This document shows positions 3,350-42,338 of a stretch of DNA of 64,000 nt, in pieces. The notes below the pieces were generated by a model. It was not told where the DNA came from. It was given only the letters and a program-made list of their open reading frames with translations, and did not search any database. The stretch's first letter is position 1; every line of letters begins with the position of its first letter. Source of the stretch: Escherichia phage vB_EcoM_phAPEC6; sequence record MK817115.1. One strand, 5' to 3'. The translations under genes and the position numbers were made by a program.

Positions 3350-3571
3350 TCATTCCTCATCACTTTCAGTTAGTATAATGCTATGTACAGCTTCCACATA
3401 GCGGTGTGTTTTGGGTGTGTTATACTTTGTAATTTCATCAAACAATTTAAACAGTGCATCTACTTCACTAAGAGCACGAATGAATACATCCATCTTGGTG
3501 ACTACTCTGGAAAACCCGCGTATGTTATTAAATTCAGAGACGTGTTCATACACAACATAGTATCTATTCAT
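3350..3571 (-). CDS. hypothetical small protein (73 aa)
   Basis: ORF tiled in minus-strand gene array. Confidence 0.45.
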   Translation of the reverse strand: MNRYYVVYEHVSEFNNIRGFSRVVTKMDVFIRALSEVDALFKLFDEITKYNTPKTHRYVEAVHSIILTESDEE

Positions 3572-4086
3572 ATATTAAAAAGTTCCATGAATTCATTGAA
3601 TAAAGAAGTTCTAATGCACATAACAAATTCAAAATCAACATCGATGGTGTCAAGTAGTTTGAACAACTTTGGTACTAATGGATCATTCACCTCAAAGTTA
3701 TGAATCAAACTTTGTTGAAACACATTTTCTTCAGTACTATAATCAATAACAAAATATTCAGCAATACCAGGTGGTGTGTAAACATCATATAAAATATGGC
3801 GGTGATGATTTGTTTTAGAACTAGGGGAATATATAAGTTCTATTTCATAAGATTTATCAGCACTGCGTGCGTAACAAACAATATCAGTACTCGTTATTTC
3901 TGAACCATCACTTCTCTCTGAAAAACAAACATCAGCATAGCGTTTTCCAGAGAGATTCAAAAGGTCATGAGTTGTTTTACCATAACAGAAATCAGTTTCA
4001 ATGCGTATCACATCTTGATATTCAATTGGTCTTGTATCGCGGCGTTCACGATTAAACACTAATTTCAACAACTCATTAATATCCAT
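3568..4086 (-). CDS. EE-x-FFQ-x-S motif family paralog (172 aa)
   Basis: Contains STEENVFQQSLIHNFEV matching the family motif seen in more than 20 other ORFs. Confidence 0.65.
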   Translation of the reverse strand: MDINELLKLVFNRERRDTRPIEYQDVIRIETDFCYGKTTHDLLNLSGKRYADVCFSERSDGSEITSTDIVCYARSADKSYEIELIYSPSSKTNHHRHILYDVYTPPGIAEYFVIDYSTEENVFQQSLIHNFEVNDPLVPKLFKLLDTIDVDFEFVMCIRTSLFNEFMELFNI

Positions 4087-4343
4087 TATTTCGCCTCGAT
4101 AACCTTAAGGTTAACAAAATCACCTTTTACTTTCATGCATTTGAATTCAGTGCGAGTTTCATCCCCACTATCGCGAGGCCAATGAGTGGCAGAGTAGCAC
4201 TGGTCTGGTGTTTTATATACACCTTCACCAATAGTACGAGTGATTTCACCATTGGTGAGAACTACTGCGAGATATAAAGTAAACATGATATTCGCCTTAG
4301 AATAATTTATTAATAATAATAGCACCCAACGCAAGAACTGCAA
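4086..4343 (-). CDS. hypothetical small protein (85 aa)
   Basis: ORF; hydrophobic N-terminus. Confidence 0.45.
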   Translation of the reverse strand: MQFLRWVLLLLINYSKANIMFTLYLAVVLTNGEITRTIGEGVYKTPDQCYSATHWPRDSGDETRTEFKCMKVKGDFVNLKVIEAK

Positions 4344-4439
4344 TAATTACAGATACCCACATTACTGCATTCACTGTACCAGTAAGTTCTTTATCAAACT
4401 CCCTGCACTTCTTGCGGTAATCTTCCCACTCTTTGTTAT

Positions 4440-4655
4440 TCACACTGCCACTCCTAATAGGTCGGTAGCTTTCTTGAGTACTACGTCAATGGTTTCCAGT
4501 ACTGCACCTTTGTGTTCAATTGATACAATATTATTATAAGTATCAAGGTCCAAGTACTCCATATATTCAGTTTTGAATACACGAACATCAGTACTAGTGA
4601 TTTTAATATCACAACCTTTATCCCAAATAACCTGCATCATTTCATTGGTAGTCAT
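4440..4655 (-). CDS. hypothetical small protein (71 aa)
   Basis: ORF tiled in gene array. Confidence 0.45.
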   Translation of the reverse strand: MTTNEMMQVIWDKGCDIKITSTDVRVFKTEYMEYLDLDTYNNIVSIEHKGAVLETIDVVLKKATDLLGVAV

Positions 4656-4930
4656 TATTCAACCTTATCATAAACAAGTTTGTGTGTGCTTAATACTTTG
4701 TTGTGATGTCCAGGGCATTCATATACATACAATCGCTCCTGACGTTTTTCCCAACCACCACAGATACGACCTGATTGTGTACATATTTCATACTCGTTAA
4801 TAAAAGACTTACCTGTGAATGTACAATCCTGACGAACTAAGTCTTTTGCACTAAACCTGCCGTCATCATTACATGCTGTAAGAAACATTGTACTGCACAC
4901 AATGATTCCAGACAAGAGTTTTTTAATCAT
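4655..4930 (-). CDS. putative lipoprotein (91 aa)
   Basis: Signal peptide followed by lipobox-like LTAC (MIKKLLSGIIVCSTMFLTACNDDG). Confidence 0.55.
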   Translation of the reverse strand: MIKKLLSGIIVCSTMFLTACNDDGRFSAKDLVRQDCTFTGKSFINEYEICTQSGRICGGWEKRQERLYVYECPGHHNKVLSTHKLVYDKVE

Positions 4931-5295
4931 TTAACATCACCCCAACGGAATCCATTCATATAATTCAAATTCACCTCAACGAGTTCATTTGTTTTTGTAC
5001 ACCAAATTGATAGAGTTTTTGTAACATCACCAGGTGAACTTTCATACTTCACACAATACCCTTCAATGCGAAGAGTTTTGTTAGTCCAATGTTGCCACTC
5101 AATCCAAATTTCATTAGGATAATAAACCATATCTTCCTTGAACCTATGGTATTGATCCATCGGTAAGTGACCTTCAACTTCAATTACTTCAGCACTTCGA
5201 ACAAGTTTGTCAAGCTTGTACTTTATCTCAGCAAGATATTCTTCATCATTCAGACGAGTTAATAAATCTGCTGCACGTGTTGTATCAAGGCTCAT
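4927..5295 (-). CDS. hypothetical protein (122 aa)
   Basis: ORF with 4-nt overlap to downstream gene. Confidence 0.55.
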   Translation of the reverse strand: MSLDTTRAADLLTRLNDEEYLAEIKYKLDKLVRSAEVIEVEGHLPMDQYHRFKEDMVYYPNEIWIEWQHWTNKTLRIEGYCVKYESSPGDVTKTLSIWCTKTNELVEVNLNYMNGFRWGDVK

Positions 5296-5297
5296 TG

Positions 5298-8703: not shown

Positions 8704-9669
8704 TTAGAAATCTTCGTATTCGTACCCTTTTGCAAGTACTAACTTCTTAAGCTTTTGCATAGCTTCACTGTACTTTCGGTGTATTGATGAACGGGATTTA
8801 ACATATTTTCCATTATCATCAACAAAACCATTATCAGCAATCTCACGAAGCGTTTCAGGTTCATATTCACCTAGACCATGAACACGCTGGATAATCTCAC
8901 GTTCTTTAGTACTCAATTCGTTAGTTAGTTCATTGATAGCATAACGTAAAGGTGCACGGATACTATCAACATTGAGGTTAAAATCAGAAGCAGGTGAATG
9001 AATAATGTCACCTAATGTACCATCTGTAACACCGTCTAATGGTGCATCCAGTGAAGTGTATTCGCTTTGAAATAATAAACAATTATTAACATGCTGAATC
9101 TCAATCCCAGTACCCTCTGAGATTATTTCAGGTGTTGGGCGAACACCATGTTTACGCATATATTCCTGGCAGAATCTTTTTACTTTGATCTTATGAACAC
9201 TCATATAACGTGGGAAGTGTACCATATAGTTAGCGTCAGAACTTTCGTTATAAACTGTCATGTAAATACTAGAAGAAGCATAGGTAATGAACTTCACATT
9301 CTTATTAAGATCAAAGGTTTTTAGTGCTCTCATGAACCCCTCAACACCATATGAAATCTTATCTTCAAATGGGATATAACAAGTACATTTACTTGCTACA
9401 TCAATAATAAGTCCATAATTGTAACGAACTAACAGTTCAGTGTTTTTCTTTACATTGATACCAGCTTGAATATCACGAATTAGATCTTCATTGGAAACAT
9501 TTGGTGGTCGCTTAAGTGTAATATTATATTTGAAACTGCTTTGTACTTTACCTTCATTTTCATCTTTATCTTCAACGAAATCTAAGGCTTCTAGTGTGTT
9601 GACTTCTTCATTAGCAAAACATTCATCCAGAACTTCTTCGGCAATTGTATTTAAATCAAGCTTTTTCAC
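8704..9669 (-). CDS. sigma-70 family RNA polymerase sigma factor (321 aa)
   Basis: Region 2-like segment (LIRDIQAGINVKKNTELLVRYNYGLIIDVASK) and region 4 HTH-like C-terminus (TLREIADNGFVDDNGKYVKSRSSIHRKYSEAMQKLKK). Confidence 0.75.
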   Translation of the reverse strand: MKKLDLNTIAEEVLDECFANEEVNTLEALDFVEDKDENEGKVQSSFKYNITLKRPPNVSNEDLIRDIQAGINVKKNTELLVRYNYGLIIDVASKCTCYIPFEDKISYGVEGFMRALKTFDLNKNVKFITYASSSIYMTVYNESSDANYMVHFPRYMSVHKIKVKRFCQEYMRKHGVRPTPEIISEGTGIEIQHVNNCLLFQSEYTSLDAPLDGVTDGTLGDIIHSPASDFNLNVDSIRAPLRYAINELTNELSTKEREIIQRVHGLGEYEPETLREIADNGFVDDNGKYVKSRSSIHRKYSEAMQKLKKLVLAKGYEYEDF

Positions 9670-9690: not shown

Positions 9691-10188
9691 TCAAAATCGA
9701 TATACATTAATATTATCATCTGTGAAGCAATCATGGTTATGCACATCCATGAAAGTACTAAACACTTTATCATATAAAGTTGTATGTTCTTCATGAATAG
9801 CAGCATCTAGCATGTATTCTCCACCACTTCCCATAAAGAAAGTGTAGTCTTCATGTAGATATTCAAGTTTTTTAATAAACTTTCCTTTAGTTAAAATCAT
9901 ATGAATAACATAATCTTTAGAAAGAAGCACACAATGGCAACTTAACTTTCTGTCAGGTATAACTGGTACTTTATTAATTAACCAATCCAGTACTTTATCA
10001 ATTTCACTTACTGACCCACTAGCACTGAATAAACGGTCATGTACATATAAAGTTTTTTGATTAACAACTCCATATTGATATTTTGGTCTTAGTGGGAAAA
10101 AACCAAATAAGTTTCGTGGTATAGTTGACGTAACTCTAGAATCGGTAATCAATAAATTTAATCGTTTATCAATATAAACAGTTGTCAT
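9691..10188 (-). CDS. HslV-like Ntn-hydrolase peptidase (proteasome beta-like), 165 aa
   Basis: N-terminal MTT (Thr nucleophile after Met removal), LYxxDxxF...G segment and GSGG motif aligned by eye to HslV. Confidence 0.6.
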   Translation of the reverse strand: MTTVYIDKRLNLLITDSRVTSTIPRNLFGFFPLRPKYQYGVVNQKTLYVHDRLFSASGSVSEIDKVLDWLINKVPVIPDRKLSCHCVLLSKDYVIHMILTKGKFIKKLEYLHEDYTFFMGSGGEYMLDAAIHEEHTTLYDKVFSTFMDVHNHDCFTDDNINVYRF

Positions 10189-17753: not shown

Positions 17754-18200
17754 TTAGTTATATGCTGTGAATAGGTCAATGTTTTTATCATCTACACTGA
17801 TTAATTTGCCAGTTGAACTAACAAACACAATATTTCCACCGGGCGTTAGTTGAACACGCTGGTTAACTGAATATTGCCCATTAAGGTTGTAATCAGCCCA
17901 TTCGACTACATAACGTTGAATAACACCGTTAGTATCATAAAGATAAACGTGTGTCACGTCACGCATTTTCAAACGTTCCAACAATGTAGAGTTATCCATG
18001 AAATCAGATGGTGTATTGCTGCGTAAAGCAATACCAAACTCACCGATAACAGTACTAATTGTCAGTCCGTTTGAAAAACGGCTACAAAGAGTCTTCTCAT
18101 CAGCAATATGCATCCATAAAACATTCTTTACATCAATATCAACAAATTCACAGTTTTCAAAAACCAAACCTACTTTGGAAACTTTACCATTAAATTGCAT
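17754..18200 (-). CDS. hypothetical protein (148 aa)
   Basis: ORF in track. Confidence 0.55.
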   Translation of the reverse strand: MQFNGKVSKVGLVFENCEFVDIDVKNVLWMHIADEKTLCSRFSNGLTISTVIGEFGIALRSNTPSDFMDNSTLLERLKMRDVTHVYLYDTNGVIQRYVVEWADYNLNGQYSVNQRVQLTPGGNIVFVSSTGKLISVDDKNIDLFTAYN

Positions 18201-18645
18201 TAGTAACTCCTATTTTTTTATATTTTAAAATTAAATCACTCACGGCTTTCATTAGATTATATGGAATAGCTAACTCTTTAACAGTACTATCCATAAAATG
18301 TTCTTCTTCGGTATCATAAAATGTTGAACTATAGTGTTCACAATCATTTATACTATCATAAAAAGAAGACGTAAGTTTATCGACAATGACAGTGATTTGT
18401 TTACCAGTTTTGGTATATCCTACCTGAACGGTTAATCCAATATCATCAGCCTCTACACGAATTATAAACGAATTATTAGTATAGTTCAGCCAACAATCTT
18501 CACCAAAGTATACAACACTGTGTTTCTTCTGAAATGAAGTTGCGGTGTTAAGAACGCCAATAGCAACATCAACTGTTTTTTCATTTAAAATATTAGACAT
18601 TTGTGTTCCTGCTTCGTATGTTTCGTGAAATCTCAAAAATACCAT
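18190..18645 (-). CDS. EE-x-FFQ-x-S motif family paralog (151 aa)
   Basis: Contains TEEEHFMDSTV variant of family motif. Confidence 0.55.
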   Translation of the reverse strand: MVFLRFHETYEAGTQMSNILNEKTVDVAIGVLNTATSFQKKHSVVYFGEDCWLNYTNNSFIIRVEADDIGLTVQVGYTKTGKQITVIVDKLTSSFYDSINDCEHYSSTFYDTEEEHFMDSTVKELAIPYNLMKAVSDLILKYKKIGVTNAI

Positions 18646-19009
18646 TCAACTGTTCAACAGTTAAACCCTGTAAATCATAAACAGTTGATAGTTGAAAGAA
18701 AAGTTCTGAATCTATACTATCATGTTCAATTGGAAGATTCAAGAGGTCTTTGTTAATAAAATAATCATATGTTCGAATTGTCAAAGAATCACCAAAGATA
18801 TCAATGTAAAATTTCGGAACATTATGTAACGAAACATCTATTAATATGTTTTCAGCATATCTACAAGAAATTTTAGAATTATTTTTATAAGATTGGTATG
18901 AAAAATTATAAGGTTCATCGACCAATGTGTATGATGAGGTATCACCTTCGGAAAATATTACACCACATTCAATAAGATGTGTTAACGACTTAGGTGGAAT
19001 TTTTAACAT
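18593..19009 (-). CDS. EE-x-FFQ-x-S motif family paralog (138 aa)
   Basis: Contains DSELFFQLSTVYDLQGLT. Confidence 0.6.
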   Translation of the reverse strand: MLKIPPKSLTHLIECGVIFSEGDTSSYTLVDEPYNFSYQSYKNNSKISCRYAENILIDVSLHNVPKFYIDIFGDSLTIRTYDYFINKDLLNLPIEHDSIDSELFFQLSTVYDLQGLTVEQLNGIFEISRNIRSRNTNV

Positions 19010-19010
19010 T

Positions 19011-19439
19011 TCACTTCCTATCCTTACTCATATTACTACGGATCACCCCACTAAGAAAACATATTTTCCTTAATGTATCATAACTGATATTTGTAAGATC
19101 ATGTACAAAATTCAACTGCAAGTACATTTCTTCAGTTAATTGATTAAATGTATCATCAACACAAATGTTAGTATGTTCCGTTATATCTATTTCTATATTA
19201 TTTTCCCAAATATCAATGCTAACAGCATAGTCTGATGTATGTCTGGATTGAACTGAAATAAAAATATTATTACTGTTGTATAATGTCTCGGTGTATCCAT
19301 TCAAAAATGATCCAACGACAACATCAAAAATGCCATCTCTAATTGGATTTTTTGTTTCAAACGTATCACTACAAACTTGACGGTATACAATGTCAACATA
19401 CTTATCAATTAAAGTAAACAAATAACTCATTGCATTCAC
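19011..19439 (-). CDS. EE-x-FFQ-x-S motif family paralog (142 aa)
   Basis: Contains TEEMYLQLNFVHDLT; probable true start is the internal ATG with SD-like GGTGA. Confidence 0.6.
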   Translation of the reverse strand: MNAMSYLFTLIDKYVDIVYRQVCSDTFETKNPIRDGIFDVVVGSFLNGYTETLYNSNNIFISVQSRHTSDYAVSIDIWENNIEIDITEHTNICVDDTFNQLTEEMYLQLNFVHDLTNISYDTLRKICFLSGVIRSNMSKDRK

Positions 19440-19440: not shown

Positions 19441-19477
19441 TATATAAGAAAAAAGGCCGATTCATCGAATCAGCCTT
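19441..19477 (-). terminator. rho-independent terminator
   Basis: 11-bp stem (one mismatch) aaggccgattc/gaatcagcctt followed on minus strand by T-run. Confidence 0.55.
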
Positions 19478-19664
19478 AAGTATAACACAGTAGAAGTTAA
19501 AAAGTCAACTTCTAAATTACAGCATCCAAGAGGAATAAAAAGATACTGTTAGAGGGTAACGAATATAATGAATTTGAGGGTAATATCATTATACGTAAAA
19601 AAGTGATAGCTTCTATACATAAGGAGGAATCAGTACTGACTAGAAGCTATCGGGTTAAACGATT

Positions 19665-20149: not shown

Positions 20150-20515
20150 CTAATTGTGGGTTTTAACCAAACGTGAGACAGCTAGTATAGCATTAACCTC
20201 ATCCAATGTCAACCCACCAATGTCATTAATCATTGAGTACTGAAATAGTGATTCTTCAGTGTAATGGTAATCATGAGAAGCAATAAAGATTGCTGGTTTA
20301 GAGGCATCCAAAATTATCTTTGTCATTGTACTATATATATCAAATTGATATAATAGATTTTCACCTGTATATGCTACGTAGATATTATTTGAATAGGCTG
20401 GATGTACCATTGTAAAACCATCATAACATAATATTTTTATGTTCGGATCGTCAAAATTGCCTGTATAAAGGTTATTACAAACATCTTGCATTATACGTAC
20501 TATTAGACTAGTCAT
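20150..20515 (-). CDS. EE-x-FFQ-x-S motif family paralog (121 aa)
   Basis: Contains TEESLFQYSMINDIGGLT. Confidence 0.6.
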   Translation of the reverse strand: MTSLIVRIMQDVCNNLYTGNFDDPNIKILCYDGFTMVHPAYSNNIYVAYTGENLLYQFDIYSTMTKIILDASKPAIFIASHDYHYTEESLFQYSMINDIGGLTLDEVNAILAVSRLVKTHN

Positions 20516-20933
20516 TTAATGGATTTAGTACCTCTTCTGGAATCAACTTTTGAACTTTAAGTATAGCTTTAATGTCCTCAAATGTTAATCCTAATATGTC
20601 GTTAAGGAGGCAGTACTGGAAGAATTTTTCTTCAGTATCAATATCGTTAACATTCAATTCAATTGATTCATCATCATAATCATAATCTTCATTATCACAT
20701 TCATAACTTCTGAATATAACTTTTTCAAAATACACATCAAATGAATAAAAATGATTATTGAATTCATAACCAAGAAAAATATTAAAACATTTACTCAAAT
20801 CTGTGGTTTGATTCAAATCTGGATCATAGCAAAATACTCTAACTTCACCAATATCTTCTAATTGTACATCATGCAGTGACCATGCGTTGTTTTTTAATAC
20901 ATAGTTCACCATTTTAACAATGTTGTATGTCAT
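20508..20933 (-). CDS. EE-x-FFQ-x-S motif family paralog (141 aa)
   Basis: Contains TEEKFFQYCLLNDILGLT. Confidence 0.6.
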   Translation of the reverse strand: MTYNIVKMVNYVLKNNAWSLHDVQLEDIGEVRVFCYDPDLNQTTDLSKCFNIFLGYEFNNHFYSFDVYFEKVIFRSYECDNEDYDYDDESIELNVNDIDTEEKFFQYCLLNDILGLTFEDIKAILKVQKLIPEEVLNPLND

Positions 20934-21286: not shown

Positions 21287-21414
<128 letters not shown>

Positions 21415-23718: not shown

Positions 23719-23880
<162 letters not shown>

Positions 23881-23884
<4 letters not shown>

Positions 23885-24045: not shown

Positions 24046-24206
24046 AATCGTACCATTATTTCAATAAAGAACCACGGATACACTTCATGATTCATAAGTT
24101 TATCGTATTCTGCTGGGTCTGATATGATTTCCCAATGATACTTTAGCCAACTACCGATACCCGAATATCTAAAATTAATGTCATTCATCCATTCTTCATG
24201 CGTCAT
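23885..24206. repeat. tandem direct duplication (two ~160-bp units, near-identical over their 3' ~85 bp)
   Basis: 23960..24045 and 24121..24206 are almost identical at DNA level (ttcccaatgatactttagcca...cattcttcatgtgtcat). Confidence 0.7.
24042..24206 (-). CDS. MTHEEWM mini-protein family, copy 3 (54 aa)
   Basis: MTHEEWMNDINFRYSGIGSWLKYHWEI...; first gene after tRNA-Arg. Confidence 0.5.
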   Translation of the reverse strand: MTHEEWMNDINFRYSGIGSWLKYHWEIISDPAEYDKLMNHEVYPWFFIEIMVRL

Positions 24207-24459: not shown

Positions 24460-24786
24460 TTATGCAAGTGCTTTAGATACACCGACACCAATAATTCCAG
24501 TGATATCGATATGGATATTGGCAAGTTGATTACTATCATATGGGTTTGTTTCTGTAATAACCAATGTTGTATCATTGACTAAAACCACAGTACCTTTTAC
24601 ACGATAACCATGTAGTAGTACTTGAACCTCATCTTCAGGTTTTAATGATTGAATAACTTCAAATAAAGTTGTTTCCATTTTTTGTATTCCTTGTTTAGTT
24701 TTGATTATTTGACTTTCTAAATGCCAGTTCGCATATAAACCAGGGTTTTCTGGTATCCAAAACATATGACCTGAAAAGATTTTCAT
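24460..24786 (-). CDS. hypothetical protein (108 aa)
   Basis: ORF in track. Confidence 0.5.
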   Translation of the reverse strand: MKIFSGHMFWIPENPGLYANWHLESQIIKTKQGIQKMETTLFEVIQSLKPEDEVQVLLHGYRVKGTVVLVNDTTLVITETNPYDSNQLANIHIDITGIIGVGVSKALA

Positions 24787-24877
24787 CTCTTAATATATCA
24801 TAATGTACCTGACGAATGCCATTCCCAAAGCAGTCATGTTCTTTATGCTGTTTGGACATCCATTCTTCGTGTGTCAT
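24695..24877 (-). CDS. MTHEEWM mini-protein family, copy 4 (60 aa)
   Basis: Track ORF 24695..24895 trimmed to the conserved MTHEEWM start. Confidence 0.5.
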   Translation of the reverse strand: MTHEEWMSKQHKEHDCFGNGIRQVHYDILRDENLFRSYVLDTRKPWFICELAFRKSNNQN

Positions 24878-24878
24878 T

Positions 24879-25214
<336 letters not shown>

Positions 25215-25219: not shown

Positions 25220-25396
25220 CTATTTTTTATCTCTAATAGCAAGCTCGTAGATGAACCAGTGGTTGGAATCTTCGTCCAAAACCAATGATTCGAACGTTTT
25301 TTTATCGTTCAAAACATCATAATGGCCTTGGCGTATACCAAATCCAAAATGATCATGTTTATATTTTAGTGACTCTATCCATTCTTCATGTGTCAT
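25220..25396 (-). CDS. MTHEEWM mini-protein family, copy 5 (58 aa)
   Basis: Track ORF 25220..25414 trimmed to conserved MTHEEWI start. Confidence 0.5.
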   Translation of the reverse strand: MTHEEWIESLKYKHDHFGFGIRQGHYDVLNDKKTFESLVLDEDSNHWFIYELAIRDKK

Positions 25397-25474
25397 TTTA
25401 TGTATCCAGTTCAATTAAGTGTTTCATTTATTCTTCTGTAAAGAAAGCATTGCAATGGACAATGGAAAAGGTTA

Positions 25475-25654
25475 TTATATTTTTTTGTCTCTAACCGCAA
25501 GCTCATAGATGAACCAACGATTTCCATTCTCATCTAGTACATATGATTCGAACTTATATTTGTCTCGTAAAATATCGAAATGACCATCAATAAATCCATT
25601 TCCAAACTGGTCATAACGTTTTTTCATCATTGCCATCCATTCTTCATGTGTCAT
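25475..25654 (-). CDS. MTHEEWM mini-protein family, copy 6 (59 aa)
   Basis: Hand-translated: MTHEEWMAMMKKRYDQFGNGFIDGHFDILRDKYKFESYVLDENGNRWFIYELAVRDKKI. Confidence 0.5.
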   Translation of the reverse strand: MTHEEWMAMMKKRYDQFGNGFIDGHFDILRDKYKFESYVLDENGNRWFIYELAVRDKKI

Positions 25655-25836
25655 CTCTTAATATCCATAACGGCTATACTAAAATATGTACCAAAATCAT
25701 CACAATTGATAATGTTGTTATAGTACTCAATTGGGTTACGCAATGATATATACAATTCAAGCTTAAAATAGTATATATCTGCTGCATTTATATTATAGTG
25801 TAGATTAAACCACTCATCAAATGTCTTAGGCTGCAT
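25651..25836 (-). CDS. hypothetical small protein (61 aa)
   Basis: ORF in track. Confidence 0.4.
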   Translation of the reverse strand: MQPKTFDEWFNLHYNINAADIYYFKLELYISLRNPIEYYNNIINCDDFGTYFSIAVMDIKR

Positions 25837-26230
25837 TATATTTATCTTTATAAAAATCCATGATTTTAGTCAACAGTACTGCAATCGTATAATCTAAATC
25901 AGGATAAAGTAAATTGTACTGAAATTCTTCCTCAACACTATAGTTAGTGGTACAGTACTGGTAATCTTTATAACCTATTGAAAAATAATTCGGATACAAT
26001 GTACAACGAAAGCGATAAGCTTCATCTGTCATATAATCATTGTATTCAACACAGAAGTATAGTGATTTTGAATTTAATTCGATAAGCTCCACGAAACCAT
26101 CTGGTAATGAATGATTATAAATGGTATTATCATTATTAAACCATTCATAATATTTTTCTAAAAAATCACTAATAGATACATCAAGACTTTGTATAGGTGG
26201 AGTTATGATAATTTGAACTTCGTTATTCAT
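25826..26230 (-). CDS. EE-x-FFQ-x-S motif family paralog (134 aa)
   Basis: Contains SVEEEFQYNLLYPDLDYT. Confidence 0.55.
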   Translation of the reverse strand: MNNEVQIIITPPIQSLDVSISDFLEKYYEWFNNDNTIYNHSLPDGFVELIELNSKSLYFCVEYNDYMTDEAYRFRCTLYPNYFSIGYKDYQYCTTNYSVEEEFQYNLLYPDLDYTIAVLLTKIMDFYKDKYNAA

Positions 26231-26775
26231 TTTCTCCCCTTATTATATTTTACATATGGGTTATCATAAAGATCATAACTTTTCTGAGCACGTTCTTTTT
26301 TGCGTTCATACATAATTCTATCATACTCCTTCGCTTTCCCATTTGCTTCATTATACAGTTTTAAAATTAGCAAAAATGTATCAAGGTCAGGGTAGTTTGC
26401 TGGATTGATAGTACTTAACATAAATCGTTCTTCTTCAGTTCTAGCAACATCAAACTCATACTTAATAGTTTTATACCCACTCCATTTATATGTGTGTATT
26501 ACTTTGTTAGTAAGTACATTATATTCAACGAAATCAGTACTACCATCAAGTACACGAGTAATCTTAATAGATGTACCAATGACAATCTGTACAGAACTCA
26601 TTTCTGAAGTTTTAAAGTAATAAATGTTATTACGGCGAAGATTAACTTCTCGATCTCCAATGCGAACATGCTTAATAACTTCCATTAATGGTTCTGGTAC
26701 ACCACGAATTGGCATGTTAATGCTCCTTTTTAATTCTATACATTTTAACAGCACTGGTTTCCCAAAAGTCACCAT
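26227..26775 (-). CDS. EE-x-FFQ-x-S motif family paralog (182 aa)
   Basis: Contains TEEERFMLSTINPANY. Confidence 0.55.
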   Translation of the reverse strand: MVTFGKPVLLKCIELKRSINMPIRGVPEPLMEVIKHVRIGDREVNLRRNNIYYFKTSEMSSVQIVIGTSIKITRVLDGSTDFVEYNVLTNKVIHTYKWSGYKTIKYEFDVARTEEERFMLSTINPANYPDLDTFLLILKLYNEANGKAKEYDRIMYERKKERAQKSYDLYDNPYVKYNKGRK

Positions 26776-26983: not shown

Positions 26984-27376
26984 CTACCAGCATGTTTTCA
27001 TAACTTCTGTGATGTGATTCATTTTATCTTTAAGTACGTAAGGGATGCAAATTTCACCTGGGCTTAACGTTGTGTTCTTTTGAAACTCATCTTCTTCGGA
27101 ATCAGCCAGGTAAAATGGGTGTGTCACAAAGGTATCATCAACTGGACGATTATGTGGTTTCATTAATGCATCATGATTGACAAAATAATAAGCATCAATA
27201 TCAGGACGGAAATACAAACAATCAACCTTAATGCACGGGTGTAACCATAAGGACAAAGAATATGTTATTTGGTTACCAATTTGTCTTGGGCCTGATGCAA
27301 TTGTATTGATGTTATTTTTATCTTGTACCATTTCATAAATGAAATCTATCATTTCGTGTAGTTCTGATTCAGTCAT
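26984..27376 (-). CDS. EE-x-FFQ-x-S motif family paralog (130 aa)
   Basis: Contains DSEEDEFQKNTTLSPGEI; SD-like AAGGAAAT upstream. Confidence 0.55.
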   Translation of the reverse strand: MTESELHEMIDFIYEMVQDKNNINTIASGPRQIGNQITYSLSLWLHPCIKVDCLYFRPDIDAYYFVNHDALMKPHNRPVDDTFVTHPFYLADSEEDEFQKNTTLSPGEICIPYVLKDKMNHITEVMKTCW

Positions 27377-31755: not shown

Positions 31756-32199
31756 TTACTCCTTAAAGTAGATATCACGAATTTGTTTAATCATCTCTAA
31801 CTCTTGAAGTCCTATCATACCAAAGTCTTCTTGTATTGTCAACTGCTGAAAGTACATTTCTTCTAAATTATTGTACGGAATCTCAACAAGATTCAAAGGC
31901 TCACTTTCCACACGATAAATTGTATCTTGTACATCATGCTTTTCGATATGAATACTAAATGTATCTTTTTGAATTCTAAATTTATAAAATGTTTGATTTG
32001 TTGTAAACAAACCAACTTTAGGATGGAATCCCATTTGAATACACAAACAATCTTCATCCTTATATTTCAAGTATATAGCTTTTGACGTTGCTAGTACTTT
32101 AGATTTTGGGAAATAAAAATCACCCATCAGCTTCTGACGTTTCCAGTCCTCATATACAACTGGATGCTTAACCTTCTTCAATTGGTGCAGTACTGTCAT
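31756..32199 (-). CDS. EE-x-FFQ-x-S motif family paralog (147 aa)
   Basis: Contains LEEMYFQQLTIQEDFG. Confidence 0.6.
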   Translation of the reverse strand: MTVLHQLKKVKHPVVYEDWKRQKLMGDFYFPKSKVLATSKAIYLKYKDEDCLCIQMGFHPKVGLFTTNQTFYKFRIQKDTFSIHIEKHDVQDTIYRVESEPLNLVEIPYNNLEEMYFQQLTIQEDFGMIGLQELEMIKQIRDIYFKE

Positions 32200-32579
32200 A
32201 GTTTTTTCCAGTCCAATGAATCGAAATCGATTTGTTCAGGATTATCAACAGCGACAACTCGTGCATTATGAAGAGTTTCAAAGTAGCCGTTCCACGGTGT
32301 ACGTACTGGAATTTTTTCATCTCCAATTTTTACAAAGAAAGAGAATTCACATGACATTGGATCAAACCATTCTTTATGTTTGGCTTCATCGATTATTGTC
32401 GCACGTTCGTTACTATATGCATCATCGAGTTTCTTAAAGAATACCCAATGCTCTTTCAAAGACTGTAATGCTACAACTGCCTCATCCTTTGATTCCCATT
32501 GAACATCCAATGTATTGGTAACTGAATCTTCAGTTTCAGTGTCCCCTGTAGTGTAATGTACTTCAATGCTGTATTTCAT
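32196..32579 (-). CDS. hypothetical protein (127 aa)
   Basis: ORF in track; lacks family motif. Confidence 0.55.
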   Translation of the reverse strand: MKYSIEVHYTTGDTETEDSVTNTLDVQWESKDEAVVALQSLKEHWVFFKKLDDAYSNERATIIDEAKHKEWFDPMSCEFSFFVKIGDEKIPVRTPWNGYFETLHNARVVAVDNPEQIDFDSLDWKKL

Positions 32580-33034
32580 TAATCATCGCCTTTTAATAAT
32601 TTACAAATTTCAATCATATGATAATAACATGTATTCCAAAATTGTCCATTAGTACTTCCAACATCATGCACAGTACTTTGTTGGAAAACATATTCATCGT
32701 TGAACATCATTTTAATATCATCAATGTAAAATTCTGGTTTTGAATCATTATTGTATTCAATACTCGTTTCACCATCTGGATCAAGTGAAATTGATGATAT
32801 GTCGTGAATTCCTCTCGGATTTGTTGGATAAATTCTCAACGTAAGAGGATAGAAGTCTGGATCGGTTTCATAAGTATATTCGATTATGTAATAACCATCA
32901 CCAGTAATTGATTGATATTTAAATGTAGTTTCAATTGAATTTGAGATGTTAAATCCCAGTTTCTTTATCTCATGTAGATGTGATAATATTTTATGTAAAG
33001 ATCCTAAAACATGAATCAAATTATCAATTTTCAT
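32579..33034 (-). CDS. EE-x-FFQ-x-S motif family paralog (151 aa)
   Basis: Contains NDEYVFQQSTVHDVGS. Confidence 0.6.
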   Translation of the reverse strand: MKIDNLIHVLGSLHKILSHLHEIKKLGFNISNSIETTFKYQSITGDGYYIIEYTYETDPDFYPLTLRIYPTNPRGIHDISSISLDPDGETSIEYNNDSKPEFYIDDIKMMFNDEYVFQQSTVHDVGSTNGQFWNTCYYHMIEICKLLKGDD

Positions 33035-33573
33035 TTACGATCCTTTGAAAAGTTCAGTTTAAAAGTTTTACCAAATTCCATTGTAGCTTTATCCAGATTG
33101 TTAATATTTTCTTTCAACATTTCTTGCATCTTCCTAATACTTTCAATCCAGGCTTCTTCTTCGATACGAAGAATTGGTCGCAATCGTTCCTGAATATCGT
33201 TAAAACGTGTATTGAGTTCAACCAATGATTCATATGTGAAATCTTTCATATCGATAATAGTACTTCTTTGAAAGAATTCTTCTTCAGACAAATTACTTAA
33301 AATGATTTTATCACGACCAATAGATAATGTCAATTCATCATCTTTATTTTTTTTAATTACAATACTAACAGGTGTTTTTAATGTAATGCAAATATCATGA
33401 TTATTAAATGTTTCAGTTTGGTTTGACATTCTGAATTGAAGTTTCCCAGATAAAGCATGTACTGGTGATGGTTTCTTTTTACCAGTAATAACATCTTCCC
33501 ATGAATCGAGAATATTATTAATAATTTTAACATAAGGAATTGGCATATATGCACCTATGAAAAATCCACGCAA
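33031..33573 (-). CDS. EE-x-FFQ-x-S motif family paralog with C-terminal extension (180 aa)
   Basis: Contains SEEEFFQRSTIIDMKDFT followed by about 70 further residues. Confidence 0.6.
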   Translation of the reverse strand: MRGFFIGAYMPIPYVKIINNILDSWEDVITGKKKPSPVHALSGKLQFRMSNQTETFNNHDICITLKTPVSIVIKKNKDDELTLSIGRDKIILSNLSEEEFFQRSTIIDMKDFTYESLVELNTRFNDIQERLRPILRIEEEAWIESIRKMQEMLKENINNLDKATMEFGKTFKLNFSKDRK

Positions 33574-35588: not shown

Positions 35589-36029
35589 TTAATTGAACTC
35601 TACTTCTGGATAATGATTATAGAACATCTCACGAACTGCGTCAAGATGTTCTTGAAATTGTTTTATATCTTCTAATGATGGTGCATCAATAACAGTACTA
35701 AGTTGAAACAACGATTCTTCTGTGTTATATAGTGACATATCAAATGAATTATTGTTGTCATCAGTTATGATATTATCACAAATTTCGTAAGTGTCAATAC
35801 AAACATCATCAAGTGTTGTATTATCATATACAGTGTATACGAATACAAAAATAAAAGAAGAATGTTCTTTACCATAACGCGGTGGGTCATATGTCACATA
35901 GCATTTGTGATCAAATGTATCGAGTTCCATAGACACCACCCCAGCTTCACGATATTCATTAGTTTCACTGGTAAGATCCGGTATTGATGTTATCGAAAGT
36001 AAGTGGAGAAATTTACTTGGATTTAGCAT
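35589..36029 (-). CDS. EE-x-FFQ-x-S motif family paralog (146 aa)
   Basis: Contains TEESLFQLSTVIDAPSLEDI. Confidence 0.65.
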   Translation of the reverse strand: MLNPSKFLHLLSITSIPDLTSETNEYREAGVVSMELDTFDHKCYVTYDPPRYGKEHSSFIFVFVYTVYDNTTLDDVCIDTYEICDNIITDDNNNSFDMSLYNTEESLFQLSTVIDAPSLEDIKQFQEHLDAVREMFYNHYPEVEFN

Positions 36030-36484
36030 TTCACCACCATTGGATTTTGCGACTGTATATTAAAAAGGGATAATACAAAAGTACTCAATTTTTCGAAACA
36101 ATCTACTAATACATTTAACTCATCATAACTAACACCAATTTCACGAATAAGCGATTGTTGAAAGAATCCTTCTTCGGTTAACGTTAAACTACTAACCTCA
36201 GTTATGTTATAATAACTTTGGGATGTTGTGGTTGATATTAGTTGTATTGAAATCGTATCTGATGTTGTGTTGTACAGATATAAATATTTTGTTTTTCTTT
36301 CCAATGGATCTATACATGAAAGATCGATCATGTCATAGGTTTTTCCAATAAAAATATTACAATCATCTGACAATTCACAACAAATGCGTATATGTTCTTT
36401 CGGGTCATGAACACGTTGTGTGTCAAATTCACATGACATTGCAATTTCAAAATGATTTTTTATTTCGTCAACATTCATCTGCAC
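36023..36484 (-). CDS. EE-x-FFQ-x-S motif family paralog (153 aa)
   Basis: Contains TEEGFFQQSLIREIGVS. Confidence 0.65.
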   Translation of the reverse strand: MQMNVDEIKNHFEIAMSCEFDTQRVHDPKEHIRICCELSDDCNIFIGKTYDMIDLSCIDPLERKTKYLYLYNTTSDTISIQLISTTTSQSYYNITEVSSLTLTEEGFFQQSLIREIGVSYDELNVLVDCFEKLSTFVLSLFNIQSQNPMVVKC

Positions 36485-36852
36485 CCACCATTAATTCTTA
36501 TATTTGTATAGTTTAATGCTTTTTTAATAATACCAATTTCTGTAATTCCTATTACATTTTTCTCAATCAATGACAATTGGAATAGTTCCTCTTCGGAAAT
36601 ATCAATACTGTGGATTCTTGTACAATAATCGTTGAAGTCATATACATATCGTATTGTATAGTCGTTTATAGAAACTGATACAATTGCAATCCCATCATGG
36701 ATGTAAGTTAGTTCATTTGAGTATCTATTAAAAATTAACCTATCTGGTGAACCTATTGGTAGTTGAAATGTATTTCTAGTATCTTGAACAATAACAAAAT
36801 CATCATCTATATTTCTACTCAGAACACCCAAAATATCATATATAGTAGTCAT
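36475..36852 (-). CDS. EE-x-FFQ-x-S motif family paralog (125 aa)
   Basis: Contains SEEELFQLSLIEKNVIGIT. Confidence 0.65.
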   Translation of the reverse strand: MTTIYDILGVLSRNIDDDFVIVQDTRNTFQLPIGSPDRLIFNRYSNELTYIHDGIAIVSVSINDYTIRYVYDFNDYCTRIHSIDISEEELFQLSLIEKNVIGITEIGIIKKALNYTNIRINGGCR

Positions 36853-36853: not shown

Positions 36854-37258
36854 TTATTCTTTACCTTCAGCAGTTCTGATAATTTTCATAACTTCTCTGG
36901 ATAGTGCGTATATTTTTTTATAGTACTCAAATGTAACTGAACCAAAATCATTAATAGTACTAGCCATGAAGAACGATTCTTCTGTATATAGTTCATTTGA
37001 CAAAGCAACCAGTTCTTGGTGAAATTTTGCGTCCTTCCAATAACGAAATTCAAAAACAAATTGTCCGTCATGACCGACTCTACAACATTCAGAACGATCA
37101 CTGTCTACACAGCTAAACACAATATCCCTTTCAGAGTCGTACCAGATATTTCCAATATTTGTTTCAATAACAGCATAATCAATTTTTTTAGAATTTGGAA
37201 TTAAACCTTTTTTCACCAGCACTAAACTGGTATTATCAATATCTAGTAAACTTACCAT
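36854..37258 (-). CDS. EE-x-FFQ-x-S motif family paralog (134 aa)
   Basis: Contains TEESFFMASTINDFGSVT. Confidence 0.65.
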   Translation of the reverse strand: MVSLLDIDNTSLVLVKKGLIPNSKKIDYAVIETNIGNIWYDSERDIVFSCVDSDRSECCRVGHDGQFVFEFRYWKDAKFHQELVALSNELYTEESFFMASTINDFGSVTFEYYKKIYALSREVMKIIRTAEGKE

Positions 37259-37259: not shown

Positions 37260-37670
37260 TCAATTCCCCATTACTAAAGTGTTTTTAATCTCCAACAATT
37301 CACTATACATATTCTTCAATTGTAATATATCTTCAAAAGTAATACCACCAAGATCATCAACTAATGAACGTTGGAATAAAGATTCACTTGTTTGTAATGT
37401 ATCTAAATCGGTGATTTTTAATAAAGAACTTGGATTAAGTGTTTCGACTAGTAGTATGTTTTTGTATGGTACATATGTGATCTTGATGTTCTTTTTATAA
37501 TTAATCTTATAAAATCGCATAATTGACGATTCATCACTTAGTTGGATAATTGGGTCGTCTTGATCATTAGACCACCATACAGTACTAGTCATATGATTGA
37601 CGTGGTGGTTCAATTCTGATATGTCCAAATCTAAAAAATATTTTAGTTCATTGTGTAAATCTAAACTCAT
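37260..37670 (-). CDS. EE-x-FFQ-x-S motif family paralog (136 aa)
   Basis: Contains TSESLFQRSLVDDLGGIT. Confidence 0.65.
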   Translation of the reverse strand: MSLDLHNELKYFLDLDISELNHHVNHMTSTVWWSNDQDDPIIQLSDESSIMRFYKINYKKNIKITYVPYKNILLVETLNPSSLLKITDLDTLQTSESLFQRSLVDDLGGITFEDILQLKNMYSELLEIKNTLVMGN

Positions 37671-37725
37671 AAATTTATCCTCAATGCAGCATCATCATGT
37701 ATTGTAGGATAAACCCACAATAATG

Positions 37726-38121
37726 TCAAGATGTGAAATAATTATACCAGTAATATAGTTCTTTTAATTCTTCAGTACTGAACAATACTTCTTCTATTGT
37801 AGATTGTTGAAAGTGATATTCATCATTTAGATACATAGAAATATTACTATATACTTTCCTATTGTATTGACATAAAAAAGAAGTTTTTTGATTAATGTAT
37901 TCAGTAAATGTTAATTTATCTAACTCAATATCGAATGATAATTTAATAATATGACTATTATCATTTACATACATTAGTTTCTTTGAAAAATGATCAATTG
38001 TAATATATTCTTTATGAGAGAACTGAAATATATTATTAAATTTATTACCATTTGTGCTTCTAAATTTTTCAAGGTAATAAGAAAGTGGTTTAATTATTGA
38101 AGTTCCAATATTGTTCTTCAT
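37726..38121 (-). CDS. EE-x-FFQ-x-S motif family paralog (131 aa)
   Basis: Contains NDEYHFQQSTIEEVLFS. Confidence 0.6.
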   Translation of the reverse strand: MKNNIGTSIIKPLSYYLEKFRSTNGNKFNNIFQFSHKEYITIDHFSKKLMYVNDNSHIIKLSFDIELDKLTFTEYINQKTSFLCQYNRKVYSNISMYLNDEYHFQQSTIEEVLFSTEELKELYYWYNYFTS

Positions 38122-38886: not shown

Positions 38887-39315
38887 TTAGAGAGATTCTT
38901 CGTATTCAGCAACAATCTCAACCATTTCATTAATGAACTTGATGTGAGAATGTGTCACTGTACGGAAGTCGTAAACAAGTGACTGTTGGAAAAATACATC
39001 TTCATCAAGAGAACCATCAAAGTTCAAATCAATGTTTTCATCGTCATTGCTTGGTGCAACTTTAATATTCAGAAGATTTTCATCAACTGCAAGTTTTACA
39101 ACACAACCCAGTGCAATGGCAAGAACATATGCTGGTTTCTTAGCTTTTTCATTACGGAATGGTGCACGTAGAGCACAAAAAGTACTGCTAATCTCATCAT
39201 TTGGTTCTTTGTATTTAACATTGACCATTAGTTCTTCGATTTTGACGCTCTCAATAACACGACCAGTTTCTGGAGCGAAGAAAGAATGTTCACGGATAGT
39301 TTGTTCGATATTCAT
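38887..39315 (-). CDS. EE-x-FFQ-x-S motif family paralog (142 aa)
   Basis: Contains DEDVFFQQSLVYDFRTVT. Confidence 0.6.
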   Translation of the reverse strand: MNIEQTIREHSFFAPETGRVIESVKIEELMVNVKYKEPNDEISSTFCALRAPFRNEKAKKPAYVLAIALGCVVKLAVDENLLNIKVAPSNDDENIDLNFDGSLDEDVFFQQSLVYDFRTVTHSHIKFINEMVEIVAEYEESL

Positions 39316-40566: not shown

Positions 40567-40654
40567 TCCAGTACATGTCCATTTTAACAGTACTGTTATC
40601 AGATGGTGTTAGTAAAGTATCGATGTCATATGTATCAAAGATTTTGTCGTTCAT
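40424..40654 (-). CDS. hypothetical small protein (76 aa)
   Basis: ORF overlapping 40261..40566 in another frame; only one is likely fully correct. Confidence 0.35.
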   Translation of the reverse strand: MNDKIFDTYDIDTLLTPSDNSTVKMDMYWIVVDKKVFRHKITKVWQCNKNKSIVEGLAQCIPNAEVLFLPYAYTKE

Positions 40655-40916
40655 ATAATCTCCTAATAAAATATTCTCGATTCTCTCTTATATACCCAGA
40701 TACACAGTTAGTTGTGGCTTGGTTAGTGAATGAAATCTCACTATTGGACACGCCATTTGCATCACACAAAGGACATATTCCCATGTACTTGGGGGTCGGG
40801 TAGGTGTCCAATTTGTATTTTCCATTACATACCATGTACTGCTGTGGCAATACATCTAATATTATTTCATATTCTTCATCAAACACCTTGAAGCATACCC
40901 AACATTTACCCATCAT
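40635..40916 (-). CDS. small zinc-finger protein (93 aa)
   Basis: CWVCF ... CNGKY ... CPLCDANG Cys clusters. Confidence 0.5.
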   Translation of the reverse strand: MMGKCWVCFKVFDEEYEIILDVLPQQYMVCNGKYKLDTYPTPKYMGICPLCDANGVSNSEISFTNQATTNCVSGYIRENREYFIRRLYERQNL

Positions 40917-41397
40917 AGTTTTCCTTTAACACAGTTCTTATATATTCGAATGTTTTAACAAACCAATCATGTTCGTCGGATACATCTACAACTTTACCAC
41001 CATATACATAGTAATGGTAAAAAGGCAACTTGCTTTTTCTTAATCTTTCGGCTAACTCTGGATTTTGAATTATTTTAGCACAAATAGCATCTTGAATAAT
41101 AGAAATACAATCATCCGTCATTTCAATTCGATCATGCATATATTTGTTAGCGGCTGCTTTTGCTGCTGCACCAGATACTTTTCTAAGGTCATCATGTTTT
41201 TGCCCAGTTAAAAACCAAAAGTAAAATGTTTCAACTGAAGGGAACCAACCATATGGTTCAAGTGTGAAGCTATGCGAAGAAAAGTTAGATAGATCTCTAC
41301 CTAACTTCGTTCTGGCTTTACTATAAATGTTAATATGTCGGTATCCATCATCAGTAGGGTCAATGAAGTTAAATGACTCTTCTGGGAATTCAAACAT
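40906..41397 (-). CDS. hypothetical protein (163 aa)
   Basis: ORF in track. Confidence 0.55.
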   Translation of the reverse strand: MFEFPEESFNFIDPTDDGYRHINIYSKARTKLGRDLSNFSSHSFTLEPYGWFPSVETFYFWFLTGQKHDDLRKVSGAAAKAAANKYMHDRIEMTDDCISIIQDAICAKIIQNPELAERLRKSKLPFYHYYVYGGKVVDVSDEHDWFVKTFEYIRTVLKENYDG

Positions 41398-41399
41398 AA

Positions 41400-41753
41400 T
41401 TATTCTTCTTCTCCTGAAGGTGTTCCACGTAGTTTATCAAAATCAACCCAAATACCATGCTGGTTTTTAAATCGACATTTCTCATAGTACCAACTATAGT
41501 CTGTTTCAACACCTTGTGAAATAGAACGCACACTACAATCATACATATTATATAAATGTTCCCTGACAATATATGTATTAATCAGTACAACGAATAATAC
41601 AATAATACCACAGATTTTAGGATGGTCCATAATCAAGTCAAGTACTGAACTAGTTTCAGAACTATCAATCTTACTTCTACAAATAGCAACAATTTTAAGA
41701 ACAGCGAATGATACCAGTAATGAAATTACAATAACACTTAAATAAATTAGCAT
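41400..41753 (-). CDS. hypothetical membrane protein (117 aa)
   Basis: Two N-terminal transmembrane helices. Confidence 0.55.
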   Translation of the reverse strand: MLIYLSVIVISLLVSFAVLKIVAICRSKIDSSETSSVLDLIMDHPKICGIIVLFVVLINTYIVREHLYNMYDCSVRSISQGVETDYSWYYEKCRFKNQHGIWVDFDKLRGTPSGEEE

Positions 41754-41756
41754 AAA

Positions 41757-42338
41757 TTACACTCCTACACCAAAACGTAAAATAATATTATTAACAAACA
41801 CTAAATCAAAAGGTGACTTTGGTTCAGATACTGAGTACTGAAATGATTCTGCTGCGAAATTTTCTCTATTATACCATGTTTCAGAATTTATTAGCATTTT
41901 TTTATCACCAATCGTCACTGAATGTAATGGAACATTTGAAGAAGAATTTATTGAATATGCATTAAGATTACCGTTTTCATCTAATGTGATACTAAGATAA
42001 TATTTTTTCTCAATATCAGGAATAAGTTCTTTTGTATACGAATAGATTGAATCAACCCATTCATCATGTACATTTTCTGCACCAATCAGGTGTCCGAATG
42101 ATAAATTACGTTTAACTGGCTTTGATCCTGGTCGAGTTAGAATGAATTGTTTTGTTAAGTAAAAATTATTATGTTTTACTTCAATATTAACATTTTTAAA
42201 ATTCACCACTTTATCATATACATTTCGAAAAACTGTTATATCCCAAGTACTAATTTCATCCATAATACTTATCACCAGTTCTTCTAGTTCTTGTATAAAT
42301 GGCAAATCATCTTGATGAAATCTAGTCATGGTTTTCAT
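41757..42338 (-). CDS. EE-x-FFQ-x-S motif family paralog, divergent (193 aa)
   Basis: Contains AAESFQYSVSEPKSPFDLVF resembling the family motif. Confidence 0.5.
   Translation of the reverse strand: MKTMTRFHQDDLPFIQELEELVISIMDEISTWDITVFRNVYDKVVNFKNVNIEVKHNNFYLTKQFILTRPGSKPVKRNLSFGHLIGAENVHDEWVDSIYSYTKELIPDIEKKYYLSITLDENGNLNAYSINSSSNVPLHSVTIGDKKMLINSETWYNRENFAAESFQYSVSEPKSPFDLVFVNNIILRFGVGV

Follow-up and report, generated by a model that had tools for sequence, protein, structure and literature searches.

Escherichia phage vB_EcoM_phAPEC6 (MK817115.1) is a Rak2-like jumbo coliphage of the genus Asteriusvirus (121Q/PBECO4 type), and a stretch of 64,000 nucleotides (nt) of its DNA, hereafter the window and numbered from its first letter, encodes many copies of a family of small proteins that share a motif of the form E-E-x-[YFL]-F-Q-x-S. 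These proteins form a superfamily that is specific to Rak2-like jumbo phages and has grown by tandem duplication and divergence. Structure models suggest that the motif is a helix within a compact domain, and we favour, at slightly less than an even chance, the view that the copies are early proteins that bind targets within the cell, diversified into a repertoire for host takeover or counter-defence, in which one scaffold is reused and the invariant helix serves as the core of the fold and possibly as a shared site. About one gene in ten across this jumbo-phage clade (Asteriusvirus and the RaK2/K64-1 group and, by structural matches, also CBB, GAP32 and Eneladusvirus) belongs to this one unnamed family. 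Several phages of the clade are under study for therapy against E. coli O157 and Klebsiella, and with the family recognised, dozens of ‘hypothetical proteins’ in each genome reduce to a single tractable problem, with one fold, one invariant site and two arrays. Here, we describe the membership and distribution of the family, the predicted structure of its motif, and the explanations that can be offered for its expansion.

Membership, copy number and distribution

A first-pass annotation of the window, made from the letters and translations, had listed ‘at least 22’ open reading frames (ORFs) as members of the family. All 22 are present on the minus strand and translate cleanly, and their motif falls in a single MAFFT column block, which is followed by a helix-like segment. 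The motif occurs far above chance: regular-expression versions of it match 12-17 window ORFs, every one of them listed, and yield 0.002-0.15 matches in residue-shuffled ORFs. As pairwise BLASTP connects just a core subset of the listed ORFs, membership was judged with profiles. Leave-one-out hidden Markov models (HMMs) recognised 19 of the 22 (E 3e-12 to 7.5e-4 among 261 ORFs; best non-member E >= 0.003), and an HMM built from 117 proteins, all from outside the window, retrieved 18 listed ORFs at E <= 1.6e-8 and zero unlisted ones; profile searches brought up no further member within the window. The original count therefore stands for 19 firm and one or two probable members, and one ORF was listed in error. 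The family had been estimated to fill roughly a quarter of the coding capacity; 24.9% of 3568..42338 is taken up by the 22 ORFs and 21.3% by the 19 firm ones. The members are listed below with strand, length in amino acids (aa), motif and E values for the leave-one-out HMM, the HMM of outside proteins (external) and, in some cases, the genome-wide HMM described further on.

3568..4086, minus strand, member, 172 aa, TEENVFQQSLI; leave-one-out E 7.2e-5, external-only 1.6e-8, genome-wide 3.5e-11
18190..18645, minus strand, member, 151 aa, TEEEHFMDSTV; leave-one-out E 1.1e-6, external 1e-13
18593..19009, minus strand, member, 138 aa, DSELFFQLSTV; leave-one-out E 5.8e-8, external 1e-11; BLASTP to 20150..20515 E 2e-5
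19011..19439, minus strand, member, 142 aa, TEEMYLQLNFV, GTG start; leave-one-out E 3.7e-5, external 1.1e-10
20150..20515, minus strand, member, 121 aa, TEESLFQYSMI, the protein modelled by AlphaFold2; leave-one-out E 3.2e-12
20508..20933, minus strand, member, 141 aa, TEEKFFQYCLL; leave-one-out E 1.1e-8; BLASTP to 20150..20515 E 1e-11
22836..23219, minus strand, divergent accepted member, 127 aa, DEEDEFQKRTV; leave-one-out E 9.6e-5, external only 0.013, genome-wide 1.4e-6
23296..23649, minus strand, member, 117 aa, TEEEYFQMSTV; leave-one-out E 2.3e-6, external 3e-14
25826..26230, minus strand, borderline, probably a divergent member, 134 aa, VEEEFQYNLL; leave-one-out E 0.19, external 0.02, genome-wide 1.3e-3
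26227..26775, minus strand, member with a basic C-terminal extension, 182 aa, TEEERFMLSTI; leave-one-out E 2.5e-5, external 1.9e-11
26984..27376, minus strand, doubtful member, 130 aa, SEEDEFQKNTT; leave-one-out E 0.08, external 0.25, genome-wide 0.029
31756..32199, minus strand, member, 147 aa, LEEMYFQQLTI; leave-one-out E 1.8e-5, external 9e-14
32579..33034, minus strand, member, 151 aa, NDEYVFQQSTV; leave-one-out E 7.5e-4, external 1.6e-11
33031..33573, minus strand, member with a C-terminal extension of ~70 aa, 180 aa, SEEEFFQRSTI; leave-one-out E 5.7e-6, external 5.1e-13
35589..36029, minus strand, member, 146 aa, TEESLFQLSTV; leave-one-out E 5.1e-8, external 2.9e-15
36023..36484, minus strand, member, 153 aa, TEEGFFQQSLI; leave-one-out E 9.8e-10, external 1e-16
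36475..36852, minus strand, member, 125 aa, SEEELFQLSLI; leave-one-out E 3.7e-5, external 2.5e-9
36854..37258, minus strand, member, 134 aa, TEESFFMASTI; leave-one-out E 2.3e-10, external 7.2e-15
37260..37670, minus strand, member, 136 aa, TSESLFQRSLV; leave-one-out E 3.6e-8, external 1.1e-15
37726..38121, minus strand, member, 131 aa, NDEYHFQQSTI; leave-one-out E 4e-7, external 1.1e-10
38887..39315, minus strand, member, 142 aa, DEDVFFQQSLV; leave-one-out E 7.1e-6, external 4.7e-14

The borderline ORF 25826..26230 has a one-residue deletion in the motif; its BF17 ortholog scores E 2.8e-4, and its weak phmmer matches are mostly family members. In the case of 26984..27376, the likeness to 22836..23219 is limited to the surroundings of the motif. 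The ORF to be removed is 41757..42338 (minus strand, 193 aa, ‘AAESFQYSV’), which lacks the motif, scores E 20 in the leave-one-out test, is absent from all other HMM searches and has no family matches by phmmer.

The window holds only part of the family. The whole genome of Escherichia phage ECO103 4-12-1 was assembled from the window and seven fetched segments, the window being 100% identical to this phage over 35000-39500 and just 98.8% identical over 17500-39500, and an HMM iterated to convergence finds 65 members in it at E <= 1e-3, with the best reversed-sequence decoys at E 0.19-0.5. Of these, 19 lie in the window and one just upstream, a few are found at 199-213, 252-253, 324 and 345 kb, and about 38 make up a nearly continuous main array of ~28 kb outside the window (record positions 266,957-294,906). 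Protein lengths in the family are about 105-230 aa. The paralog expansion described in the first-pass annotation is thus real, yet only about a third of the ~65 copies per genome had been seen. The family also extends well beyond this genome: a HMMER scan of 1.84 billion representative proteins returned 164 clusters (50% identity) at E <= 1e-3, all of ~60-250 aa, and the core of the motif is kept in 173 of 184 proteins fetched from public clusters. Of the 132 full-length (110-180 aa) representatives that were compared, just 13 are close orthologs of window members. The Klebsiella Rak2-like phage OU509535.1 has at least 43 copies, arranged in two arms as in this phage, and metagenomic contigs carry 17 copies in 20 kb or 7 in 4.7 kb; tblastn with one distant member matched a single Erwinia jumbo phage, and tblastn with the consensus of the HMM gave no match, probably owing to the low-complexity filter. 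BLAST at 1e-5 splits the family into components of at most 6, which is why it has escaped notice as a single family.

Searches against known families gave nothing shared. Pfam holds no match common to 10 window members, 136 aligned members, 20 long or motif-less homologs and 10 main-array members, NCBIfam has no match for the family, and the best PDB sequence reaches E 0.43 against the family profile, in line with the earlier remark that the motif was not recognised as a named domain. Together with the leave-one-out and independent HMMs, these searches establish a genuine, expanded and diverging paralog family with an unnamed motif. Foldseek on BFVD matches solely uncharacterised proteins of Rak2-like phages. 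In PHROGs, each of the 10 window members matches its own group at E 1e-56 to 1e-122, with weak sibling cross-matches at 1e-3 to 1e-11; the groups concerned (17453, 24941, 24510, 30841, 30548, 38573, 22160, 28118 and others) are all of ‘unknown function’ and are not united into one family, and every gene of the listed set is a ‘hypothetical protein’ in the 121Q annotation. The α-β7-α-α fold of the acidic MAM33/p32 (gC1qBP) proteins was considered as a relative and set aside: no significant structural superposition was obtained, and the Pfam MAM33 profile matches none of the 136 members or the window members. As a separate observation, one of the 136 homologs matches Pfam RecQ-1-like_HTH (PF21220) at E 3.7e-12, a domain that is absent from 20 long or atypical members rescanned; this homolog could be a fusion or a mis-recruited sequence.

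Neither the family nor its motif is described in the literature that we found, which contains only generic remarks on paralogs and tandem arrays. The authors of the RaK2 genome noted that ~10% of its gene products are paralogs (PMC3622015), 22 paralogous ORFs were listed for CBB (PMC5259590), and a lineage-specific expansion of a zinc-ribbon family to ~35 copies has been described in Bacillus phage G (PMC7824862). That jumbo genomes can grow by tandem duplication has been proposed by Hua et al. 2017, who mention an array of over 30 closely similar genes in 121Q (PMC5646251). These arrays share with the present family dozens of small same-strand paralogs in tandem, a phage genome of >300 kb and an attribution to tandem duplication (PMC7824862, PMC5646251); unlike that of phage G, the family described here has no zinc ribbon or other known domain, and it is not named or delimited in the literature found. 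Directly beside the main array lies a separate tandem array of ~26 genes (66-104 aa) with an ‘LGTNYQEEYV’ motif (OR844650.1 295,140-300,897; 121Q genes ~321-346), and it is probably this adjacent array, not the present family, that Hua et al. mention. Its ~70-aa proteins are unrelated to the family, with an hhalign probability of 0.3%.

The motif as part of a predicted fold

AlphaFold2 (AF2) was run twice on the product of 20150..20515, with an alignment of 19 paralogs or of 136 diverse family members, and predicted the same topology both times, at a predicted local distance difference test score (pLDDT) of 74.7 with the former and a pLDDT of 85.7 and predicted template modelling score of 0.79 with the latter. 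The predicted arrangement is α1-β5-α2-α3, that is, a helix at residues 4-18, five antiparallel strands within 26-79 that form a meander, a helix at 87-96, which is the motif, and a helix at 104-119. DSSP assigns the motif helix 87-96 in both models (block pLDDT 81-92), and it is encoded as follows.

20219..20260, minus strand, codons for residues 86-99 of 20150..20515: N-cap Thr, motif helix α2 and Asp-hydrophobic, from DSSP and column frequencies in 136 sequences

Across the 136 sequences the motif columns read T 63%/S 22%, E 94%, E 96%, x, Y 35%/F 30%/L 16%, F 99%, Q 86%/M 13%, x, S 92%, T 58%/L 38%, V 45%/I 39%, x, D 70% and a hydrophobic residue. The low-information positions 89, 93 and 97 are spaced i/i+4/i+8 and so lie on one stripe of the helix, and the motif therefore resembles a half-buried helix, in which T/S serves as N-cap and D as C-cap. 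This stripe, α1 and the sheet vary freely; upstream of the motif, conservation is limited to alternating hydrophobic columns and Y31, and no basic residue is conserved anywhere in the alignment. On the basis of these models, we infer that the motif comprises the N-capped helix α2 and its C-cap in a compact domain, one face of which would pack with α3 against the sheet to form the sole conserved core. For the invariant polar cluster E87-E88-Q92-S94-D98, the protein itself offers no conserved basic partner, and the cluster is for this reason likely to be a site common to all copies, where a cation, a basic stretch or a shared partner would bind.

Both models place a well-predicted helix inside a folded domain, which speaks against the earlier idea that a short linear signal for docking, processing or targeting lies near the C-terminal tail. 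In the docking version of this idea, the motif would be a bacterial beta-clamp-binding peptide of the QL[SD]LF or QLxLxL type or a PIP-like peptide. There is a superficial likeness between Q-x-S-L-[IV] and Q-L-S-L-F, and phage replication genes, recognised from ORF translations only, lie in the same window; however, a confidently predicted helix in a domain is not a flexible peptide, and 65 clamp binders in one genome are implausible. The frequencies in the 136 sequences also disagree with a clamp-binding peptide, with Q at 86%, L at position 2 at 19%, S at 92%, T 58% or L 38% at position 4, and V 45%, I 39%, L 13% and F 0% at position 5, and we regard clamp docking as very improbable.

Scarcely better placed is a protease processing site or degron, with cleavage after Q akin to a 3C/TEV-type E-x-x-Y-x-Q|S. 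The TEV site is ENLYFQS, which the subset of motifs reading ‘EEEYFQQS’ resembles, and a peptidase is annotated ~5 kb away in the relative BF17. Against such a site, Tyr is found at P3 in only 35% of the 136 sequences, the residue after Q is variable, Ser is located at P2' and not at P1', where such a site has Gly or Ser, and the segment forms a helix in the core of the fold. Glu, moreover, is the residue after which T4-type prohead proteases of this clade cleave. The first-pass annotation had based this proposal on HslV-like and ClpS-like genes of the phage itself; the ORF that may be the ‘HslV-like’ gene (9691..10188, minus strand, 165 aa, starting MTTV...) has no match in Pfam or NCBIfam at E <= 1e-3 / 1e-2, so that the label is unverified, and the ClpS-like gene was not located.

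The possibility that the signal resides in the DNA or RNA inside the coding sequence, for instance as a recombination hotspot or regulatory site, is hardly credible. In its favour, GAA-GAA and TTT-CAA codons predominate in the motif, but a genome of 33% GC prefers GAA and TTT in any case. Codon analysis refutes the proposal: the conserved Ser has AGT in 8 cases and TCN in 7, two unlinked codon families, and Q is encoded by CAA or CAG, F by TTT or TTC, and T by ACT, ACA or ACC. Since the codons for Ser, Q, F and T vary in this way, selection on the motif acts at the level of the protein, not the DNA.

Promoters, selection and the possible function of the family

The family genes were said to sit behind consensus early-type promoters, and near-consensus σ70 promoters in the window are indeed concentrated on the coding strand, with 29 matches (>=11/12), compared with 2 on the opposite strand and, on average, 2.6 (maximum 9) in shuffles. 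Twelve of the 29 minus-strand promoters are perfect (12/12), most are positioned 30-100 nt upstream of ORF starts, and five stand directly before family members. Examples are the following.

21316..21343, minus strand, perfect 12/12 σ70-type promoter, upstream of tRNA-Thr and then members 20508..20933 and 20150..20515
23681..23708, minus strand, 11/12 σ70-type promoter, 32 nt upstream of member 23296..23649
23271..23299, minus strand, 11/12 σ70-type promoter, directly upstream of member 22836..23219
37701..37729, minus strand, 11/12 σ70-type promoter, 31 nt upstream of member 37260..37670, heading the run from 37670 down to 35589

The start of 19011..19439 is separated from a 10/12 promoter (19508..19479) by a strong terminator-like hairpin with an 11-bp stem (19477..19453, minus strand); this hairpin may be the terminator of the upstream unit, overlapping the next promoter.

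Because the phage encodes its own sigma factor (8704..9669), host-type promoters plausibly mark the early class, and early expression of the family is suggested by these sequence matches. The products are probably cytoplasmic: no family gene in either arm is labelled ‘virion structural protein’ in 121Q, a label that is given to the nearby genes 69, 78, 154 and 155. Members are mostly acidic, with a median isoelectric point of 4.7 vs 5.8 for non-members. The same annotation bears, indirectly, against a further earlier proposal, in which the motif is a packaging or injection signal and the proteins are internal-head proteins (T4 IP-like) or ejected proteins, perhaps of the 121Q inner body. The inner-body proteins of phiKZ form paralog families. 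A phiKZ-like inner-body pattern has been seen in bubblegrams of 121Q (PMC5646251). However, σ70-type early promoters are not the class expected for head proteins, and the first 85 columns of the alignment show scattered hydrophobic conservation only, with no shared N-terminal targeting peptide or propeptide; we consider this role highly unlikely.

To assess selection on the family, a congeneric phage, BF17, was used for comparison; it is syntenic with the window and ~86% identical to it at the DNA level. Family orthologs share 73% amino-acid identity and neighbouring genes 89% (p=0.008). The median ratio of nonsynonymous to synonymous substitution rates (dN/dS, or omega) is 0.29 for the family and 0.11 for the neighbours (p=0.0015), dS is not different, and every value is below 1, from which it follows that all copies are kept by selection, their variable parts evolving ~2.6 times faster than the surrounding genes. 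The earlier remark that the N-terminal parts diverge while the motif is kept applies even to these orthologs, in which the motif retains 86% identity, compared with 70% for the N-terminal part and 77% for the C-terminal part.

These data also bear on the idea that the arrays are capsid-filling duplicates, largely dispensable and kept because an enlarged capsid that is filled by headful packaging can tolerate, or requires, additional DNA (a ratchet), with the motif surviving only as the folding nucleus. The growth model of Hua et al. 2017, with its >30-gene array in 121Q (PMC5646251), would accommodate such duplicates, as would an omega 2.6-fold above that of the neighbours and N-terminal parts that are barely constrained. 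Yet omega lies at 0.08-0.48 throughout, indicating purifying selection on every copy tested, the synteny of orthologous copies is kept across Asteriusvirus, large arrays persist in another genus, and many copies have strong promoters of their own. We therefore think this explanation unlikely; if the copies nonetheless prove to be dispensable duplicates, they would allow the capsid/genome ‘ratchet’ model for the growth of jumbo phages to be tested directly.

Just as unlikely, in our estimate, is an adaptor library, in which the variable sheet face of each protein would bind a different host or defence protein and the invariant E-E-F-Q-S-D helix would couple all of them to one machine, be it a protease, a chaperone, a modifying enzyme or RNA polymerase. 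The poxvirus ankyrin/PRANC (F-box-like) and BTB-Kelch proteins are multigene families to which such a library could be compared in architecture: each genome has many paralogs, which combine a variable part for target binding with a conserved, short helical module at the C-terminus. Unlike in those families, the conserved helix would here be located within a single small domain, and there is no relationship in sequence or fold. A near-invariant polar and aromatic patch (E-E-F-Q-S-D) on proteins that are otherwise 8% identical, the lack of a conserved intramolecular basic partner and the presence of dozens of diverged copies, not identical dosage copies, all fit an adaptor. On the other hand, no candidate for the common partner was identified and the supposed HslV-like gene lacks family-level support; in addition, the conserved residues occupy helix faces expected to pack on the sheet, the stripe most likely to be exposed is the variable one, and the Q/M interchange points to packing. 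If true, an adaptor library would give bacteriophages their first counterpart of the adaptor families (ANK/F-box or BTB-Kelch) of eukaryotic viruses, on a fold without a solved relative.

In the model that we prefer, that of a diversified binder repertoire, host RNA polymerase would transcribe the family genes early from the σ70-type promoters, the products would remain in the cell and not enter virions, and the variable surfaces of the sheet and α1 would give each paralog its own target, so that the family as a whole would act as a diversified set of intracellular binders for host takeover or counter-defence. Host-takeover early gene modules are represented by gp37-60 of Bacillus phage SPO1 and by the small non-essential early genes of T4. 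The analogy with these modules is a functional one, in that clusters of small, often acidic, non-virion proteins appear to stand behind strong host-type early promoters in both cases, the promoters here being identified by consensus matches only; the SPO1 and T4 modules consist of unrelated proteins, whereas here one fold is reused ~65 times. Several points weigh against this interpretation. The searches brought up no homolog of known function, no expression, transcriptome or phenotype data were found in the literature for this phage group, and the early timing is read from promoter matches. Gene-wide omega exceeds 1 in no gene, and its raised level could reflect relaxed constraint instead of target-driven diversification. 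The fold is predicted for one member only (20150..20515), the burial of individual motif residues is deduced from helical periodicity alone, and the Q/M interchange at position 92 suggests packing and not chemistry, so that the role of the conserved cluster could be structural alone. Should the copies be diversified binders of host or defence proteins, they would be among the largest counter-host repertoires known in a phage and, at the same time, a natural library of small binding domains.

Genomic surroundings of the family

The relatives of the window are the ~350-kb Rak2-like jumbo myoviruses of the genus Asteriusvirus, and over 35000-39500 it is 99.5-99.8% identical to 121Q, PBECO4, G17 and others. 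The window has a GC content of 33%, and its genes are nearly all on the minus strand. The part from 17500 to 22800, which contains five family members and a tRNA gene, shows the lowest conservation among Asteriusvirus genomes that are ~98% identical elsewhere; in 121Q, PBECO4 and the Salmonella SD phages, megablast gives a separate alignment for it or none. Over 43500-64000 on the minus strand, small ORFs give way to larger genes that, judged from translations only, resemble replication and housekeeping genes, including a clamp-loader-like AAA+ protein (50602..51591), a GroES-like protein (51905..52231) and type II topoisomerase-like proteins (55920..59347).

Other genes are interspersed with the family members. 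Seven tRNA genes (Thr-tgt, Asn-gtt, Met-cat, Ser-act, Arg-tct, Ser-tga and Gly-tcc) are found among them on the minus strand at 20950-25192, as are two mini-families on the same strand: three tandem ORFs of 54 aa at 23720-24206 (23720..23884, 23881..24045 and 24042..24206) and three ORFs of 59-66 aa with mutual BLAST matches at 24695-25654 (24695..24895, 25220..25414 and 25475..25654). A cytosine-5 DNA methyltransferase gene (34071-34931, minus strand) is flanked by family members, a placement that is conserved, as the same gene is located among family members in a distant metagenomic relative (10888-11745 there).

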